Source of the DNA: a virus
Taxonomy: Duplodnaviria; Caudoviricetes
DNA length: 64,000 bases
Strand: one strand, 5' to 3'
IMG/VR virus record: IMGVR_UViG_3300048691_000224
Below are positions 53,320 through 60,282 of this stretch, piece after piece. The notes below the pieces were generated by a model, which was given only the letters and a program-made list of their open reading frames with translations, was not told the DNA's origin and searched no databases. Position 1 is the stretch's first letter. Every line of letters starts with the position of its first letter. A program made the position numbers and the translations under genes.

Positions 53320-54171
53320 ATGAGCTCACTACTATTCTCCCCGTCGTGTCTTAGTCCTATTCAAGGGTTGGTTGACTTTACGCTAGACGCAAAGCCCTTC
53401 CATACCAAAATCTTATCAGCTGGAATTCAAATAAATTTCTCCGATGATTTGAATGTCGCTCCAGAGGAAGACTTCTTTTCGATTGTGCACCTCGGCTTCA
53501 ATCTACACACAGATAATTGTGACCAACCCCCTGATTGTTGTGTCATACAAGGTCTGGAGACGACCGTTCTTGAAGATTTGGGAATTGAGATGGATTCCCC
53601 AATATACTCAATTATCACTGACCCCAGAGGCTTGGATATTAATCCCGAAACGAACGCACCATATCGAAATCCACTATGGTACATCGGACTGAGTTCTGGG
53701 GGAGTTCCTGTGTTTTACGACTTCCCGATGTGTGATGTTGAACCAACGATATCAACTACCATGCCTGGTTGTGAAATTGGATTCGAGGTATATCCATATG
53801 AAACTACTGGATACGAATTTGGAGATCCGCTGTGTGAGGTTTATTGCGAACCTCAACCAGCATGTGAGACAGGGCTTGAGGGTGAGTTACTTGAATCAAA
53901 CCTACTCGAGTCGGGGACAATTGATTGTGAAGCCGTGTGTGGATACCAGCCAAGTATGAGGATTGGTCTTGAACTAGGAGAGTTGGAAGAATTTCCCATC
54001 GAGTATGCAGATCCAATCCCAACCGAAATTTGGTCTAACAACTATCACGGCCCTTGCACGGTACCTTCTACATCACCTTGCCCTGACATCTCTCATACGA
54101 CTGTATCAGCTGCAATGGTGGAGTTTTTCCAGGTTATTGAAGATGGTGTACTATTACTAGAGATTGGTTAA
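53320..54171 (+). CDS. highly acidic Cys/Pro-rich virion-associated protein
   Basis: 283 aa with 13 Cys and only 2 Lys + 3 Arg; KPFHTK motif near the N-terminus. Confidence 0.65.
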   Translation: MSSLLFSPSCLSPIQGLVDFTLDAKPFHTKILSAGIQINFSDDLNVAPEEDFFSIVHLGFNLHTDNCDQPPDCCVIQGLETTVLEDLGIEMDSPIYSIITDPRGLDINPETNAPYRNPLWYIGLSSGGVPVFYDFPMCDVEPTISTTMPGCEIGFEVYPYETTGYEFGDPLCEVYCEPQPACETGLEGELLESNLLESGTIDCEAVCGYQPSMRIGLELGELEEFPIEYADPIPTEIWSNNYHGPCTVPSTSPCPDISHTTVSAAMVEFFQVIEDGVLLLEIG

Positions 54172-54173
54172 AA

Positions 54174-54641
54174 ATGATACTCGAATCCACAATTCAACAA
54201 GTTCAGCAAGCTACGACAACCATGCCAAGTGATCGCGATGAGCGATCGAAAGGCGTCAAGTTAGTTGGATCGGTTGAGTGTAGTGCAGTTCCACCTGGAG
54301 TGCTATTCTCCGCTACTACGGCGACCAAACAACGTGTACATCTCAGAGTGCTTGACACTATTGAACAACCTGATGGCGTGCAGGTGCAACTTGTAGATGG
54401 TGAGTCGATAAACATACACCCGATCGACTCGAGGGGTGATAAAATACAACTTAATTGTACTTGTGAAGATTTTACATTTCGACTGGCACGAGCGAATTCG
54501 AGTGTAGGGGTTTTGTTTGGATCAATTAGCAAACCGTATATCAAGAAAACTAGTTCCCCTGTAAGCAACACATCCATTGGTATGTGTAAACACCTTATGA
54601 AATTAATTGCTACCCTCACAGCAAGTGGTATAATCAAGTAG
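54174..54641 (+). CDS. SWIM-type zinc-finger protein
   Basis: CTCEDF...MCKH (CxC..CxH). Confidence 0.7.
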   Translation: MILESTIQQVQQATTTMPSDRDERSKGVKLVGSVECSAVPPGVLFSATTATKQRVHLRVLDTIEQPDGVQVQLVDGESINIHPIDSRGDKIQLNCTCEDFTFRLARANSSVGVLFGSISKPYIKKTSSPVSNTSIGMCKHLMKLIATLTASGIIK

Positions 54642-54719
54642 TGATTTTGTAGTGATCTAGTAGAACGCACGATCTTTTGGCTAAATACACCACATCACTG
54701 AATATGTTGGTATTTGAAT

Positions 54720-56177
54720 ATGTTAGTTCCATTCCGTCAAGGTATTGTAAATTCTCAAAAACAAGGCTTAGTTCCTGGCTTTTTATCGGTCCAGGCTGGT
54801 AATATTACACTATTAGCTGACAACACTCCTTTGATAATGTGCTTTGCGCACGGCGCGAGTGATTATCTAATTTCCGTAGACTCAACCAAATTAAATGCTT
54901 GGACTGGATTCGGATCATCAAGCTATCCAACAGGGGTATCTTACTGGTTATATATTGACGTCGATCCAGCTACTGGTTTGATAACATACGGCCAGGTCCC
55001 AACCGCCCAAACCAACGCATCTAAAGCTCCTACAAACCCACTGCCTAACCAACACTGGTATGATATGAACAGTTCCAAGATGAAAGTTTGGACAGGCAAT
55101 ACATGGCAAGTTAGAATTCGACTTTTTGTTGCAGAGTTCACCAACTCCTCAACAATTTCATACATCCCGTATGGTACCCAAGTGGGTAAATCAACGAGCG
55201 TCAATGCAGGCCGCATTGCTTTTGACTCATATAGCAAGCCAATCAGAAAGAGTACGGGTGAATTTTTTACAACTGAAGACTCAATCTATGTAAATGGAAT
55301 CGTATCTGCACCTAACTCTTATGAGACCCGCCGTCTTGCTGTTACCGCCCTGGAGCCAATTCCAGCGAGATCGATCGTGGCACTTGCACAGTTCGATAAA
55401 GTTGTTGTAGCTCGATATGAAGATACTGGGACACGAGTACTAGGATTTGCAAACAATGCAATGGCTATTGGCCAGACAGAAGAAATTGTATTAAGTGGTG
55501 TGATCGAGAATACCGCATGGAACTTCTCGACAGTGAATGATAATATATGGGTAGAGCTTGGCCAGCCGGTTGTAGTGAGTCCTTTTGCAGTTACGTCTGG
55601 TCGAGGAATTCAACAGCCAATCGGTAAGGTAATTGCACCACAAAAGATTCGTTTTAATCCTCCAAATTTCCACATACCTACCGTGGCTGGTACCCCAACC
55701 GCTGGACCGACAAATATATGGATTACAACAATCGACACCAGTAATGCAGCAAACTTGCTGAGTTACGGTACCTATGACACGCACAAGTTCACTGGAAATA
55801 CAGTATCGAGTACTGCAATATTACCACCATCAGCACCACATCGGATGAAGTTAACCCCCGGGTACTATACATTTACATTCAATGGTGCGCTCTCAGCAGA
55901 TTTCATCGGCAATCCCCGAACTACCATCGCAGTTTCCAACGCTCCAACCGCGTGGCCACTACTGCCGGCCCAAGGATGGACATCTCAAAATACTGGTGGT
56001 GTATCGGACACGGAGACGGGTTTGACTGAAGTTGTTGAGTCGGTTACATACACAACGACCCTACTGGTGGTTGACGAAGTAGAGTTTGCGATTCAAAATA
56101 CATTAAACCCAAATACGCTAGTTCGAACTTCAGTCACAGGAACGTTGATTATCGAGCAACTCAATGTAACCATTTAA
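54720..56177 (+). CDS. virion structural protein
   Basis: FRQGIV N-terminus, QHWYD..S.KMKVW.G..W module; CTAAATA at 54681-54687. Confidence 0.7.
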   Translation: MLVPFRQGIVNSQKQGLVPGFLSVQAGNITLLADNTPLIMCFAHGASDYLISVDSTKLNAWTGFGSSSYPTGVSYWLYIDVDPATGLITYGQVPTAQTNASKAPTNPLPNQHWYDMNSSKMKVWTGNTWQVRIRLFVAEFTNSSTISYIPYGTQVGKSTSVNAGRIAFDSYSKPIRKSTGEFFTTEDSIYVNGIVSAPNSYETRRLAVTALEPIPARSIVALAQFDKVVVARYEDTGTRVLGFANNAMAIGQTEEIVLSGVIENTAWNFSTVNDNIWVELGQPVVVSPFAVTSGRGIQQPIGKVIAPQKIRFNPPNFHIPTVAGTPTAGPTNIWITTIDTSNAANLLSYGTYDTHKFTGNTVSSTAILPPSAPHRMKLTPGYYTFTFNGALSADFIGNPRTTIAVSNAPTAWPLLPAQGWTSQNTGGVSDTETGLTEVVESVTYTTTLLVVDEVEFAIQNTLNPNTLVRTSVTGTLIIEQLNVTI

Positions 56178-56196
56178 CGATAGTAAATCAAATATC

Positions 56197-56239
56197 CGAA
56201 AAACTAGAGGAGTAAATAACACACTCCTCTAGTTTTTCG
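56197..56239 (+). terminator. 17-bp perfect hairpin with late promoter GTAAATA at the stem/loop junction
   Basis: CGAAAAACTAGAGGAGT-AAATAACAC-ACTCCTCTAGTTTTTCG. Confidence 0.85.
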
Positions 56240-56266
56240 TTGTATAACAATACAATCCACATATAC

Positions 56267-57100
56267 ATGTCTATCAATCCACTATTAGAATCAACATCAT
56301 TTCGTCTACCCGGAGAGACTGTTAAGTTACCTAGCTTGGCTCTGTTCTATGACAACACTGTAGTAGATGATACTGTCCTCGTCGAGGGTGAAGTGTACGT
56401 ACAACCCATGACGACGTATGAAGAGTTACTGATGAAAACTCCTGAGTTGATCTACAGCGGTCAGGCTCTAACTCAAGTATTCGGCAAGTGTATTCCTCAA
56501 ATCAAACAACCAATGCAGCTATTAGCTAAAGATGTTGACTTCTTGTTGATAGCGCTCCGCAAAATTTCCCTCGGGTCTGTCGTAACAATCACACATACCC
56601 ACACGTGCGATGATGCTCATGAACATAACTACAACGTAGATGTGAGTAGCTTTATTAAGGACACTAATAATGTCGACCCATCGACAGTAACCACACTATT
56701 TGAAACTACCCTAGATAATGGTCAAATTGTGAAACTTAAACCTTACACAATGGGTGCAGTGTTATCACTATCCCAAACGGCCGTTGCTCAACAAGACAAA
56801 TTAGAAGCAATGTCTGAACTTGAGTTAGTAAATTACATGCGTGATAGCATACTGTTGAATATACTGCCAGCAATTGTATCGGTTGGTGATGTTACAGATG
56901 AAAATCATATTCTGGAGTGGTTGAATAATTTACCGATGGCTTGGATCAAGCGACTCAACGCTACAATTGAGAACACTAACGCTTGGGGAGTAGATTTTAC
57001 TACAGAACAAGTTTGTAAAGATTGTGGTGAGTCATTCACGACTATTGTCCCTTTGAATCCACTAAGTTTTTTTACGGAACCCTCAGGTCTGGAGATGTAG
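56267..57100 (+). CDS. baseplate hub assembly / tail assembly chaperone (gp26-like)
   Basis: VQPMTTYEELLMK, DVDFLLIALRKIS.G, CKDCG, ends PLNPLSFF; immediately precedes the tape measure gene. Confidence 0.8.
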   Translation: MSINPLLESTSFRLPGETVKLPSLALFYDNTVVDDTVLVEGEVYVQPMTTYEELLMKTPELIYSGQALTQVFGKCIPQIKQPMQLLAKDVDFLLIALRKISLGSVVTITHTHTCDDAHEHNYNVDVSSFIKDTNNVDPSTVTTLFETTLDNGQIVKLKPYTMGAVLSLSQTAVAQQDKLEAMSELELVNYMRDSILLNILPAIVSVGDVTDENHILEWLNNLPMAWIKRLNATIENTNAWGVDFTTEQVCKDCGESFTTIVPLNPLSFFTEPSGLEM

Positions 57101-57303
57101 ACCGCATCCGAGAGCTGTTCGCGGCTCTTGAAGATGAAGCGCGAGGGTTAATCAAGACTGTTATAGATTTGGTGTACTTCATGCGTGGTGCAGTATCTTA
57201 CGAGGAAATGATGCGCCGTTGCTTTGCTGAACGGCAACTAATTGGCGAATTTCTCAGTGAACGCCTAACTACAGAGTCTAACAAAGAGTTCCAGGTCTAT
57301 TAA
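57067..57303 (+). CDS. -1-frame extension of the chaperone (gp51-like C-terminal part), probably reached by programmed frameshift
   Basis: T7 run at 57067-57073; the -1 frame reads FFYGTLRSGDVDRIRELFAALEDEARGLIKTVIDLVYFMRGAVSYEEMM...QVY*; no ATG before 57181. Confidence 0.75.
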   Translation, partial: FFYGTLRSGDVDRIRELFAALEDEARGLIKTVIDLVYFMRGAVSYEEMMRRCFAERQLIGEFLSERLTTESNKEFQVY

Positions 57304-57387: not shown

Positions 57388-60282
57388 ATGGCTACAACTC
57401 CGCAGAATCAATTAGGGAATACATTATCAGCTGCTGATGTGAAGGAACTCACACGCGCCATGGCTAGACTGTCAACAATAATGACAGGCCAAATTAAGCC
57501 CCTGGCTAAGGCACTGGACCTACTATCAGGACTTACGACAGATTCCGTAGGGGTTGGTCGACAGGTACTCAAATCGGACCGTGACACAAGAAAGGTCGAT
57601 CAGAAGCTGATTGACTCTTTGGTTAACCTCACGGAGTCAAATGAGCAAGACAAACGAAAATTAGCAGAAGCTGTTGCACTTGCCCAGCAGACTCTGCAAC
57701 AAGCTGCTGCTAATACCCGCACCGCCGCTGAGAGAGCTCTGAAAACAGCCGAAGCTGATTACCTCAAGTTCCACGATCAGATGAAGCAGGTGATGGAGCC
57801 GATCATCCAGTATACCGACGATTCGAGTGAGCAGTTTGCAAAACAACTTGAATTAGAAAAACAGTCCGTAGAACTAAAAATCAAGGAATCTACCTCTCGT
57901 AAGGAACGAATATCGGCTGAGAAACAACTGTCGACGATTCAAGCTCAAATCGCCGAAAAAAATGAATCTGATGCTACGACTCGACTAACCGCCACCAAGG
58001 CTGCATATGCAGCCCACAGTTCGTTAGCGAACCAAACGGCTCAAAAGCGAGCTCAACTTGAGTACGATACAGCAAAAGCAAATAGCGCTCGAGCAGCTAA
58101 ACTAGCAGCGCCCAATGGCGCTCTTGTCCCGGTATTCGAAACTCTGGCTAAGCGAGTAAAGGAATTTGTAGCTGGACTATCTCTTGCAAGTGCTGCAACG
58201 TCAGTATATGGTGATATGATCACTCAGAGATCAACAGGCGGCGCAAATTCGATAATCGGTGGGAATGATAACAACAGTAGCATATTAGGCAACTATGGGA
58301 CTGCGGCTGCACAGGGTATAAACACAAAGACGTTGATGGAGATCCGACAATCAACACGCGCGGCTGAACTGAGTGCTGGATCCCAAGCAAAGTTTGACCA
58401 AGCACTATTCGGAAACTTGGCAGGGCTGTACGATATTACAGAGAGTCGTAATGAGGCTGCCCAGATAGGAGCAGGAATTCTATCCGCAACTCAAGAGGTG
58501 GGAATCTCAGCCCCTGTTGGCGGCAAGTTGCTTGGTGATCTGACAGAGCAGTTCGGCAAACTGAGTCGATTGACAGGACTGAGCACGATATCCATAGCTA
58601 AGATGACTGAGGGCATCACAAAGGATTCAGATCAGCGAGAAATCATGTTGGGTATGGGCGAGAAGCAAAAGTCCATGTACCTACTAGAGCAAGTGCAGAG
58701 AATGGCTCAGTATAAACAGGCCGGTTATTCGATAGAGCAAGCTCAGGAACTAATACGACTGCAAGCTCAACAACACAATAAAAAAGCACTGTCTAAGTTC
58801 ACAGACTACTACACTCAACAGTTACACGTGTCGCAAATAGAAAAGGGACTACGAGATACTGGTAATGGGGACCGCGCTGCGAAGGTTGCCGCCGCCCAAC
58901 AGCGAGACCGCGAGTTGGAAATGCGAGGACGAAATGTCCAAGCATCGTCTCCTGAAGGACAACAAATTATCAAGGAGCGTGCGGAACTCAAAGGCATCAT
59001 TGGTGAACAAGCTAAATTCCTGATTAACTCTCAAACCACGGCAGGTGATACCGGTAAGAATGTAGCTGTGTTACAACAGTGGCAGGAATCATTAGATAAA
59101 CTCAAGGGTACTGATGCAGCATACGGGATAGTAAATCAAGGCGCCAAAGACGTTGACCAAACAGCTGCAAAAGCAGCATCACCCAGTGGATCAGCAGCAA
59201 CAAATGGGGTTACGACTTTAGTTGACCGTGTATCCAGCATATTAACAAATCCAATCCTACAAGGCGCAGGCGGCCTTGCATATTTTACCTCCACAATGTT
59301 TTTTCACGGTGTCGCGATCAAATACATGATGATGAAAATGAGAACATCTGTAGGTAGTTTAGCAAAAGGTGCGCTGGATAGTGTGAAAGGTGGTGCTGGT
59401 AAAGTTGGTGAAATAGCTAGGAAAACAGGGAGCAAGATAGGCTCCGCAGCTAAAACAGCTTGGGATGCGACAAAAACAGGTGGTGGATATCTCGCAGATG
59501 TAGCCAAGTCAAGTGGGAGCAAGATAGGCTCTGCAGCTAAAACAGCTTGGGATGCGACAAAAACAGGTGGTGGATATCTATTAAACGCCGCCAAAGTAGG
59601 AGGAAGTTCGCTAGTAGGGAATGCTGGAAAGATCGCATCTATTGGATCCAAACTATCATTAGCTGGAATAGCCTCATATATTGGTGGTGAGTTTTTGGAC
59701 GATAGAGCGAAAGCTGAAACAGCAAAGGGAAATATCAAAACTGGTGCGGCCCTCGATACAGCAGGGTACGCTTTGCAAGGTGGAGCGCTTGGTGCGACAA
59801 TAGGGTCGTTCGTACCAGTAGCTGGTACTGCAGTTGGTGCAGCAGTTGGTGCGGGTATGGGAGGGGCATATGGTCTGTACCAAAATTGGACTAAGTCACC
59901 AACAAGCCCAAAGTTGGGTGATGTCCCTACTGATGTCCAACCAGGTAAGATAGCAACTCCATCCCAACCGCTGATGAGCTCAGCATTAGCGGACAAGAAA
60001 GCGGACGCAATCTCCAGTTTAACATCCGCCGCAAAAACCCTACCTGGTGCTAATGATGGAACATCAACTAGTACAAAAACCCCCGACGAGCCTAGTAGGG
60101 ACCAAAGCCTTGTGGCCATAGAACAATTGACAGCGCGAGTAGTACAGTTACTAGAGTTGATGATTAATAAACCTGAATCTGAAAGTCAGACTAAGTTGAC
60201 CAATGAGTATATGCGAAACGGGTCTAATCTTCGCATCGCCACTGCTATGTACAGCCAACCAGTAATCAATGTTCCCTCATAG
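57388..60282 (+). CDS. tape measure protein
   Basis: 964 aa, Ala/Gly/Gln-rich helical and coiled-coil character, GAxxG repeats; follows the chaperone gene; CTAAATA at 57324-57330. Confidence 0.8.
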   Translation: MATTPQNQLGNTLSAADVKELTRAMARLSTIMTGQIKPLAKALDLLSGLTTDSVGVGRQVLKSDRDTRKVDQKLIDSLVNLTESNEQDKRKLAEAVALAQQTLQQAAANTRTAAERALKTAEADYLKFHDQMKQVMEPIIQYTDDSSEQFAKQLELEKQSVELKIKESTSRKERISAEKQLSTIQAQIAEKNESDATTRLTATKAAYAAHSSLANQTAQKRAQLEYDTAKANSARAAKLAAPNGALVPVFETLAKRVKEFVAGLSLASAATSVYGDMITQRSTGGANSIIGGNDNNSSILGNYGTAAAQGINTKTLMEIRQSTRAAELSAGSQAKFDQALFGNLAGLYDITESRNEAAQIGAGILSATQEVGISAPVGGKLLGDLTEQFGKLSRLTGLSTISIAKMTEGITKDSDQREIMLGMGEKQKSMYLLEQVQRMAQYKQAGYSIEQAQELIRLQAQQHNKKALSKFTDYYTQQLHVSQIEKGLRDTGNGDRAAKVAAAQQRDRELEMRGRNVQASSPEGQQIIKERAELKGIIGEQAKFLINSQTTAGDTGKNVAVLQQWQESLDKLKGTDAAYGIVNQGAKDVDQTAAKAASPSGSAATNGVTTLVDRVSSILTNPILQGAGGLAYFTSTMFFHGVAIKYMMMKMRTSVGSLAKGALDSVKGGAGKVGEIARKTGSKIGSAAKTAWDATKTGGGYLADVAKSSGSKIGSAAKTAWDATKTGGGYLLNAAKVGGSSLVGNAGKIASIGSKLSLAGIASYIGGEFLDDRAKAETAKGNIKTGAALDTAGYALQGGALGATIGSFVPVAGTAVGAAVGAGMGGAYGLYQNWTKSPTSPKLGDVPTDVQPGKIATPSQPLMSSALADKKADAISSLTSAAKTLPGANDGTSTSTKTPDEPSRDQSLVAIEQLTARVVQLLELMINKPESESQTKLTNEYMRNGSNLRIATAMYSQPVINVPS
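59428..59579 (+). repeat. 65-bp direct repeat x2 (87-nt / 29-aa period) in the tape measure gene
   Basis: GSKIGSAAKTAWDATKTGGGYL twice; one nucleotide mismatch. Confidence 0.95.

Follow-up and report, generated by a model that had tools for sequence, protein, structure and literature searches.

The stretch of DNA analyzed here (the window, 64,000 nucleotides (nt) from the IMG/VR virus record IMGVR_UViG_3300048691_000224) belongs to a freshwater giant myovirus. Our subject is a locus of this phage at which a gene of the T4 gp26/gp51 family, encoding a presumed tail and baseplate-hub assembly chaperone, has a run of seven T residues close to its 3' end, and at which an open reading frame (ORF) in the −1 frame takes over from that run and continues towards a tape-measure-like gene. 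A first-pass annotation, made from the letters of the sequence, had proposed that ribosomes join the two frames by programmed −1 frameshifting, as known for lambda G/GT. The features of the locus are as follows, the lengths of proteins being given in amino acids (aa).

56267..57100, plus strand: short-form gene in frame 0, encoding 277 aa of the T4 gp26/gp51 family (PF12322, T4_baseplate; phrog_150, baseplate hub)
57028..57030, plus strand: TGA closing the −1 frame upstream, which leaves this frame open for just 14 codons ahead of the junction codon (57073)
57067..57073, plus strand: slippery heptamer T_TTT_TTT with the frame-0 codons AGT TTT TTT, at which tandem −1 slippage of Phe transfer RNAs (tRNAs) is possible
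57073..57303, plus strand: −1 frame extension of 76 codons plus TAA, a putative gp51-like C-terminal helical domain
57078..57149, plus strand: candidate stimulatory RNA structure, beginning 4 nt past the heptamer
57388..60282, plus strand: tape-measure-like gene of 964 aa, the presumed client of the chaperone as judged by composition, synteny and a language-model lead

The short-form gene extends from the ATG at 56267 to the TAG at 57098-57100, and the C-terminus of its 277-aa product reads ...PLNPLSFFTEPSGLEM (...CKDCGESFTTIVPLNPLSFFTEPSGLEM). The T7 run at 57067-57073 is read within AGT TTT TTT ACG, which is the correct X_XXY_YYZ phase, and in this phase both Phe-tRNAs can re-pair after a shift by −1. 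The heptamer allowing perfect tandem Phe-Phe slippage, as described in the first-pass annotation, is thus present in phase. The first codon after the predicted slip is the TAC at 57073, from which 76 aa are encoded (YGTLRSGDVDRIRELF...EFQVY in translation) up to the TAA at 57301-57303. This agrees with the earlier tracing of a −1 ORF with a 76-aa tail from a TGA at about 57028 to a TAA at 57303, and the reading frames likewise yield the two product lengths that had been predicted, 277 aa and about 345 aa. The predicted long product consists of 269 + 76 = 345 aa with the junction ...PLNPLSFF followed directly by YGTLRSG..., and the predicted tryptic junction peptide of the window phage ends in ...PLNPLSFFYGTLR. 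The sole ATG within the extension is located at 57181, where it encodes the M of FMRG, and a TTG is found at 57169. As far as the letters are concerned, every statement of the first-pass annotation proved correct. Altogether, the window holds one PF12322 core and one extension, and no separate gp51 gene.

The T run was found unaltered in independent data. It occurs as T7, without insertions, deletions or differing letters, in the contigs of three independent freshwater DNA runs (X5, X6 and X8), and likewise, with no gaps, in a contig of one metatranscriptome library (X23), whose occurrence in an RNA library by itself is no proof of transcription. Because T7 agrees across independent runs, a homopolymer miscount is excluded, and the run length of 7 nt that the first-pass annotation had assumed is confirmed. 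Contigs drop rare variants, and are therefore uninformative on minority slipped transcripts.

The 277-aa protein matches the Pfam family PF12322 with a score of 52.1 bits (cut-off 24.5; E 9e-14), residues 42-269 corresponding to positions 15-218 of the 219 positions of the profile. The last matched residue, 269, is the second Phe of the slip site, which marks this Phe as the end of the domain. Among the PHROGs, the protein matches phrog_150, baseplate hub, with an E-value of 1.4e-15. We found 98 homologues. H112, C114, C250 and C253, which make up a split His/Cys cluster, and the aromatic pair F268-F269 at the C-terminal end of the domain show no variation in an aligned sample of 16 diverse sequences; T4 gp26 and gp51 possess the equivalent Cys pairs. 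A blastn search of the locus against GenBank phages gave no match.

Conservation of the slip site was examined in relatives comprising 76 distinct genes from metagenomic giant phages and from the phages XacN1, RaK2, 121Q, PA5oct, CBB and Atu_ph07; the scan of IMG/VR for such loci had returned 80. An in-phase T_TTT_TTN heptamer was present in 71 of the 76 distinct relatives (50 with TTTTTTT, 20 with TTTTTTC and 1 with TTTTTTA), and its place is where the PF12322 profile ends. By comparison, about 17.5% would be expected from the genes' own Phe codon usage and third-position T frequency, given the conserved xFF motif. As the core proteins of the relatives are merely 25-50% identical, their synonymous sites should have been free to vary. 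The slippery run is thus conserved in relatives, a point on which the first-pass annotation had suggested that its proposal be checked. Beyond the run, nearly all loci have 75-82 open codons in the −1 frame, which opens at a median of 11 codons ahead of the junction, whereas the +1 frame is mostly short (fewer than 22 codons at every locus but one). A tblastn search with the 76-aa extension matched five named giant phages (XacN1, CM1, RAS14, Xoo-sp13 and RsoM2USA), and all five matches begin at query residue 1 and lie in the −1 frame of a gene annotated as 'baseplate hub subunit', inside its 3' end, where a run of T7 or T9 is found. The RaK2-like group, consisting of PA5oct, Atu_ph07, CBB, 121Q and RaK2, reads NNT TTT TTC at this place and has a −1 extension of 71-76 codons.

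The extension itself is conserved as protein. Fifty extensions align with almost no insertions or deletions, are conserved from the first codon and share the pattern Y.TL..G....I..MF..L..E........I.L.YFMRG...Y......T..ER.....FI..RLE.E, with residues 1-14 being as conserved as residues 15-36 (majority frequency 0.43 versus 0.45). In 55 of 66 distinct loci the frame-0 stop lies 0-2 codons past the run, so that the stretch after it is non-coding in frame 0. In the window, the conserved start of the extension precedes every start codon; the first-pass annotation had remarked that the conserved-looking part of the tail lies upstream of its only ATG, and our data bear this out, with the ATG at 57181 and conservation from the first codon onwards. 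AlphaFold2, supplied with the alignment of the extensions, confidently predicts a domain of three helices, with a predicted local distance difference test (pLDDT) value of 86. When the extension profile was searched against 1.84 billion proteins, 611 matches with E-values of at most 1e-3 were obtained, most of which are ORFs of 40-99 aa that gene callers had started at any available ATG, GTG or TTG. In every giant-phage genome examined, the long form is absent from the annotation, and the extension is either a small orphan ORF or uncalled. The extension has no match in Pfam, PHROGs or NCBIfam, and a Foldseek search of its model against viral structures gave nothing below an E-value of 2.

The RNA downstream of the heptamer has the potential to form a stable structure. 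The segment 57078-57149 folds with a minimum free energy of −33.6 kcal/mol and a z-score of −3.1 relative to shuffled sequences, forming a larger three-way structure made up of an outer stem (57078-57084/57143-57149) and two hairpins (57086-57091/57098-57103 and 57105-57117/57122-57136). Both hairpins that had been pointed out before (GGTCT/AGACC at 57086-57103, and AGAGCTG-TTCG-CGGCTCT) lie within this minimum-energy fold. In the related locus L006, hairpin 1 has an A-U pair in place of one G-C pair, owing to two synonymous changes. Across 65 loci, the 60 nt past the site fold more stably than windows from the gene body (mean z −1.42, with 35% below −2), and the stem in relatives often starts about 5-7 nt past the site.

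In other members of the family, core and extension are found joined without any slip. Seven of the top 150 matches of the extension profile are proteins of 320-346 aa in which the PF12322 core continues in frame into the extension, and their junction, ..NFRNKL.., corresponds to the predicted junction of the RaK2-like phages, ..FF followed by R.KL.., minus one Phe. Moreover, some lineages without a slip encode a short and a long paralogue. A Logan contig (L092:820-2744, from SRR5080639) contains two tandem PF12322 genes, the first of which specifies a 294-aa short form that has lost the Cys motifs, ends in ..SFFND and keeps TCT TTT TTC without a −1 ORF after it, while the second specifies a 346-aa long form with the extension in frame and without any T run. 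The contig provides a case of the two-gene arrangement of T4 in a lineage other than the T4 group.

The complete genomes of XacN1, PA5oct, 121Q and RaK2 contain one PF12322 gene each, and that of T4 contains two. T4 gp26 (208 aa) corresponds to the PF12322 profile from end to end and stops shortly past ..EFF.., whereas T4 gp51 (249 aa) corresponds to the profile over residues 1-201 and has in addition a tail of 48 aa. At the position of the slip site, T4 gene 26 reads TTC TTT, and there is no slippery run. A newer Pfam release gives the gp51 homologues a second family, PF28602, which presumably covers the gp51 tail. In hhalign comparisons, the extension profile aligned with the gp51 family over the C-terminal 34 columns (E 1.4e-4, probability 52%), and a profile of the natural fusions aligned with gp51 collinearly from N- to C-terminus (E 5.7e-5, probability 66%), the alignment including the ..LL.(S/N)P(E/D)EI.. 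stretch right past the junction. This relationship is supported by family profiles; single-sequence comparisons of the extension with T4 gp51 (E 0.08) and gp26 (E 0.17) were not significant. With moderate confidence, the architecture of these proteins is consistent with T4 gp26 being the short form and gp51 the long form. As for the 'gp26/gp51 pair' named in the first-pass annotation, membership of the gp26/gp51 family (PF12322) was upheld, but a second gene for gp51 was not found, and it is the −1 extension that would represent the gp51-like tail.

Structure comparisons point in the direction of known tail assembly chaperones. The AlphaFold2 model of the core has a pLDDT above 90, and the HK97 tail assembly chaperone 2OB9 aligned with it at a Z-score of 6.6 and a root-mean-square deviation of 4.7 Å over 98 of 107 residues. 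This chain ranked first after re-alignment of the top 934 PDB chains from Foldseek, the runner-up having a Z-score of 4.3, and when 48,161 representative chains were searched, 3KLU (YqbN, Z 6.0), 3FGX (Z 5.5) and 2OB9 (Z 5.3) ranked highest. We take YqbN to be a prophage tail assembly chaperone of the XkdN type (Pfam PF08890). A Z-score below 8 can reflect a common arrangement, and the chaperone matches of the core, at 5.3-6.6, are modest. A profile search of the sequences of solved structures gave chance matches only. The long form was folded from the cores and the seven natural fusions, its extension being modelled with moderate confidence only, and a Foldseek search of this model against Swiss-Prot models returned nothing meaningful. 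The first-pass annotation had expected the locus to link T4-type hub assembly factors to tail assembly chaperones, and such a link is supported by membership of PF12322, by the correspondence of gp26 and gp51 to a short and a long form, and by the structural matches of the core.

The 964-aa protein encoded downstream is coiled-coil-like, with Gly-rich hydrophobic segments and an internal repeat; its long helical and Gly-rich makeup is that of tape measure proteins. It matches no Pfam, PHROG or NCBIfam family, and a tblastn search against phages gave no match; its neighbors in language-model feature space are tape measure clusters (score 0.93), which we treat as a lead only. Residues ~310-460 weakly resemble the long ORF of 700-990 aa that adjoins the chaperone gene in relatives, and the RaK2 counterpart of this ORF is annotated as similar to tape measure protein. 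The tape-measure-like gene lies directly downstream in the window and in L005-L008, and at 67 of 79 loci a divergent ORF of at least 250 aa adjoins the chaperone gene. In Bacillus phage vB_BceM-HSE3 (HSE3; L090, MF418016.1) the sheath and tube genes are followed by the gp26-like gene, a small extension-like ORF and the tape measure gene, which places the gp26-like gene at the classical position of a tail assembly chaperone; this full order of sheath, tube, chaperone and tape measure was seen only in HSE3. The position 'just before the tape measure gene' given in the first-pass annotation thus holds for the subclade of the window (L005-L008) and for HSE3, but in most relatives the two genes are adjacent and divergent. 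The extension-like ORF of HSE3, gp075 (L090:2689-2913), aligns with the extension at an hhalign E-value of 1.9e-5. HSE3 lacks a T run, the site reading TTC TTT CGT, and gp075 reflects either separate expression or a different (+1) recoding. Prediction of a complex between the core and residues 200-700 of the 964-aa protein gave a score of 0.01, which speaks neither for nor against binding.

Some further observations concern the surroundings of the locus. Around residues 680-740 of the 964-aa protein, in its Gly-rich hydrophobic part, there is a near-perfect tandem duplication of about 28 residues (..SGSKIGSAAKTAWDATKTGGGYL.. twice). Further downstream of this gene lie genes for a T4-type portal (gp20) and a prohead protease. 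On the other side, the stretch that separates the chaperone gene from the 487-aa gene upstream contains a GC-rich inverted repeat, CTAGAGGAG ... CTCCTCTAG, with TTTTT after it (56190-56240). It looks like an intrinsic terminator, which means that a new transcription unit may begin with the chaperone gene. The genes upstream of the chaperone gene, encoding 283, 155 and 487 aa (53320-56177), have no significant match in Pfam, PHROGs or NCBIfam; the classical gene order, if it held, would put tube and sheath among these three. In Pectobacterium phage CBB (L087, NC_041878.1), the gp26-like gp250 is annotated as 'structural protein'. If this label is based on mass spectrometry of virions, the short form may remain in the particle, unlike lambda gpG.

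Three explanations compete with a ribosomal frameshift. The one that survives best is transcriptional slippage, in which the polymerase would add one U, so that a minority of messenger RNAs with U8 encode the same 345-aa fusion in frame. The site is indeed a homopolymer, and some relatives have T8 or T9, on which bacterial polymerases are known to slip (reviewed in PMC5009743). Even a low yield might suffice, as lambda uses a ratio of about 30:1 (PMC5009743). However, 20 of 74 distinct genes have only TTTTTTC, and its six T residues are poor for polymerase slippage but form a valid heptamer. What is conserved, moreover, is not the length of the run but its phase and the third-position T of the preceding codon (X_XXY_YYZ), and the enrichment of downstream structure, often 5-7 nt past the site, suits a ribosomal stimulator. 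The RNA-library contig also shows U7, though it is blind to a minority. We infer from these features that the slip is of ribosomal nature, and regard slippage of the polymerase as unlikely.

Less probable still is the absence of any recoding, with the −1 ORF being translated alone (from the TTG at 57169, the ATG at 57181 or a non-canonical start) into a protein that acts in trans. Such separate expression would agree with the extension-like ORF of HSE3, which has its own ATG and is in the +1 frame, with the ORFs of 58-75 aa that gene callers regularly call at the extension, and with the Met that many relatives have at extension residue 15. Against it, the 32 codons ahead of the TTG at 57169 in the window, which contain no start codon, are conserved as protein, and the extension always starts exactly at the in-phase heptamer. 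In addition, there are natural in-frame fusions with the same junction, and the T4 gp51 tail is fused to a core. We consider this explanation very improbable. There is hardly any room for the third explanation, an artefact in which a homopolymer miscount cut one 345-aa gene in two or the frames overlap by chance, since homopolymer errors are common in assemblies but T7 is free of insertions and deletions in four runs of different samples, and the same split recurs in about 70 genomes that were assembled independently of one another, and also in finished isolate genomes from different groups.

Ribosomal frameshifting is thus the explanation that we favor, and a number of observations have to be set against it. 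Five of the 76 relatives lack a canonical in-phase heptamer and yet have an intact −1 extension: in L012, L063 and L078 the run is in another phase, which would permit just a P-site or a mismatched slip, and no T run is present in L032 (3762-3800; TCT TAT TTT) and L075 (3783-3830; CTA TTT TCC). For L032, a single-base sequence error is possible. With respect to the RNA, no family-wide consensus structure was obtained (0 pairs), and the spacer of 4 nt in the window is shorter than the usual 5-9 nt. With respect to the extension, most relatives have the Met at residue 15 (..I..MF..), where the start of a 62-aa ORF is called. This Met, for which the window has Leu, may serve some lineages as an alternative internal start, or the position may simply be conserved as hydrophobic; together with the own ATG of the extension-like ORF in the +1 frame of HSE3, the Met makes separate expression possible in some lineages. 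The probability of 52-66% for the alignment with the gp51 tail is not decisive, the structural matches of the core have moderate Z-scores and are supporting rather than decisive, and the tape-measure identity of the 964-aa protein is a lead from composition, synteny and language-model features only. Finally, both products are predictions from the sequence.

Weighing these points, we assign a probability of about 0.8 to the interpretation that this gene, which belongs to the T4 gp26/gp51 family and would encode a tail/baseplate-hub assembly chaperone, is recoded by programmed −1 ribosomal frameshifting as in lambda G/GT. According to this model, most ribosomes would read AGT TTT TTT ACG and stop at 57100, producing the 277-aa short form. 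A minority would slip back by one base with two Phe-tRNAs on T_TTT_TTT (57067-57073), probably aided by the RNA structure that starts 4 nt downstream, and would read TAC GGA... up to 57303, producing the 345-aa long form that consists of the core and the 76-aa three-helix domain. The existence of the two products, their ratio and their binding partners are predictions of the model. By analogy with lambda G/GT and with T4 gp26/gp51, both forms would act on the neighboring tape-measure-like protein and on the hub when the tail is initiated, and the extension would provide an additional contact.

The −1 frameshift producing lambda gpG and gpGT is conserved in the chaperone genes of long-tailed phages (Levin, Hendrix and Casjens 1993; Xu, Hendrix and Duda 2004, as cited in PMC5009743), and is among the most conserved viral recoding events. 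A review calls it conserved 'except T4' (PMC5009743). For T4 itself, PMC3004832 counts gp26 and gp51 among the hub assembly chaperones and describes gp51 as an essential protein that has no known function and does not occur in the particle. In full-text searches covering few subscription journals, we found no report of a frameshift in genes of the gp26/gp51 family, and the PA5oct omics paper makes no mention of one. The kind of frameshift is already known from lambda G/GT, but the PF12322 family has not previously been listed with one, and the present locus and about 70 relatives would extend it to T4-related giant phages. We lean towards the wider view that T4-type phages are no exception to the two-form rule, the PF12322 proteins being the equivalents of G and GT that are made either by a slip on U_UUU_UUY or from two genes, the latter being the solution of T4 and some other lineages. 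If this is true, gp51, which has long been referred to as an essential 'catalyst' without a known function, gains a role as a GT-like adaptor. Two T4 proteins with roles that have been vague for decades would thereby obtain a testable function, and a slip site and a gene duplication would be two evolutionary routes to the same pair of products.

Compared with known systems, the locus resembles lambda G/GT in that the predicted slip lies close to the 3' end of a chaperone gene that adjoins a tape-measure or, in the window, a tape-measure-like gene, that a short and a C-terminally extended product with a common N-terminal part are predicted from a heptamer in phase, and that the feature is kept in the family despite low sequence similarity. 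Unlike lambda G/GT, the family of the window gene belongs to PF12322, with about 270 aa and conserved His and Cys residues, and uses the heptamer U_UUU_UUU or U_UUU_UUC; its frame-0 stop lies mostly 0-2 codons past the site, its extension measures about 76 aa, and the tape-measure-like gene is mostly divergent rather than downstream. In phage P2 (gpE/E+E') and in other myoviruses, a pair of tail chaperones is likewise produced by −1 frameshifting (PMC5009743), but the gpE/E+E'-type proteins, which were not compared here, differ in being small and in having no detectable sequence relation to the window gene. The HK97 chaperone 2OB9 and the Bacillus subtilis prophage protein YqbN (3KLU) are similar to the core in structure, with 83-98 residues aligned, but at a sequence identity of 10-13%, and they are less than half as large as the core. 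Sites of transcriptional slippage, such as those in insertion sequence (IS) elements and in dnaX of some bacteria (PMC5009743), have in common with the window that a homopolymer joins two frames, whereas the window family conserves the phase and includes a six-T variant, which points to the ribosome. The T4 proteins gp26 and gp51 are of the same family as the window gene: gp26 ends a few residues past ..FF.. as the short form does, and gp51 has, like the long form, an extra C-terminal tail, which aligns with the −1 extension. In T4, genes 26 and 51 adjoin hub and tape-measure genes. They differ from the window in being two paralogous genes, and the gp51 tail, with about 48 aa, lacks most of the first long helix of the extension. 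The comparison suggests that T4 is exceptional only in encoding both forms as two genes, 26 and 51.

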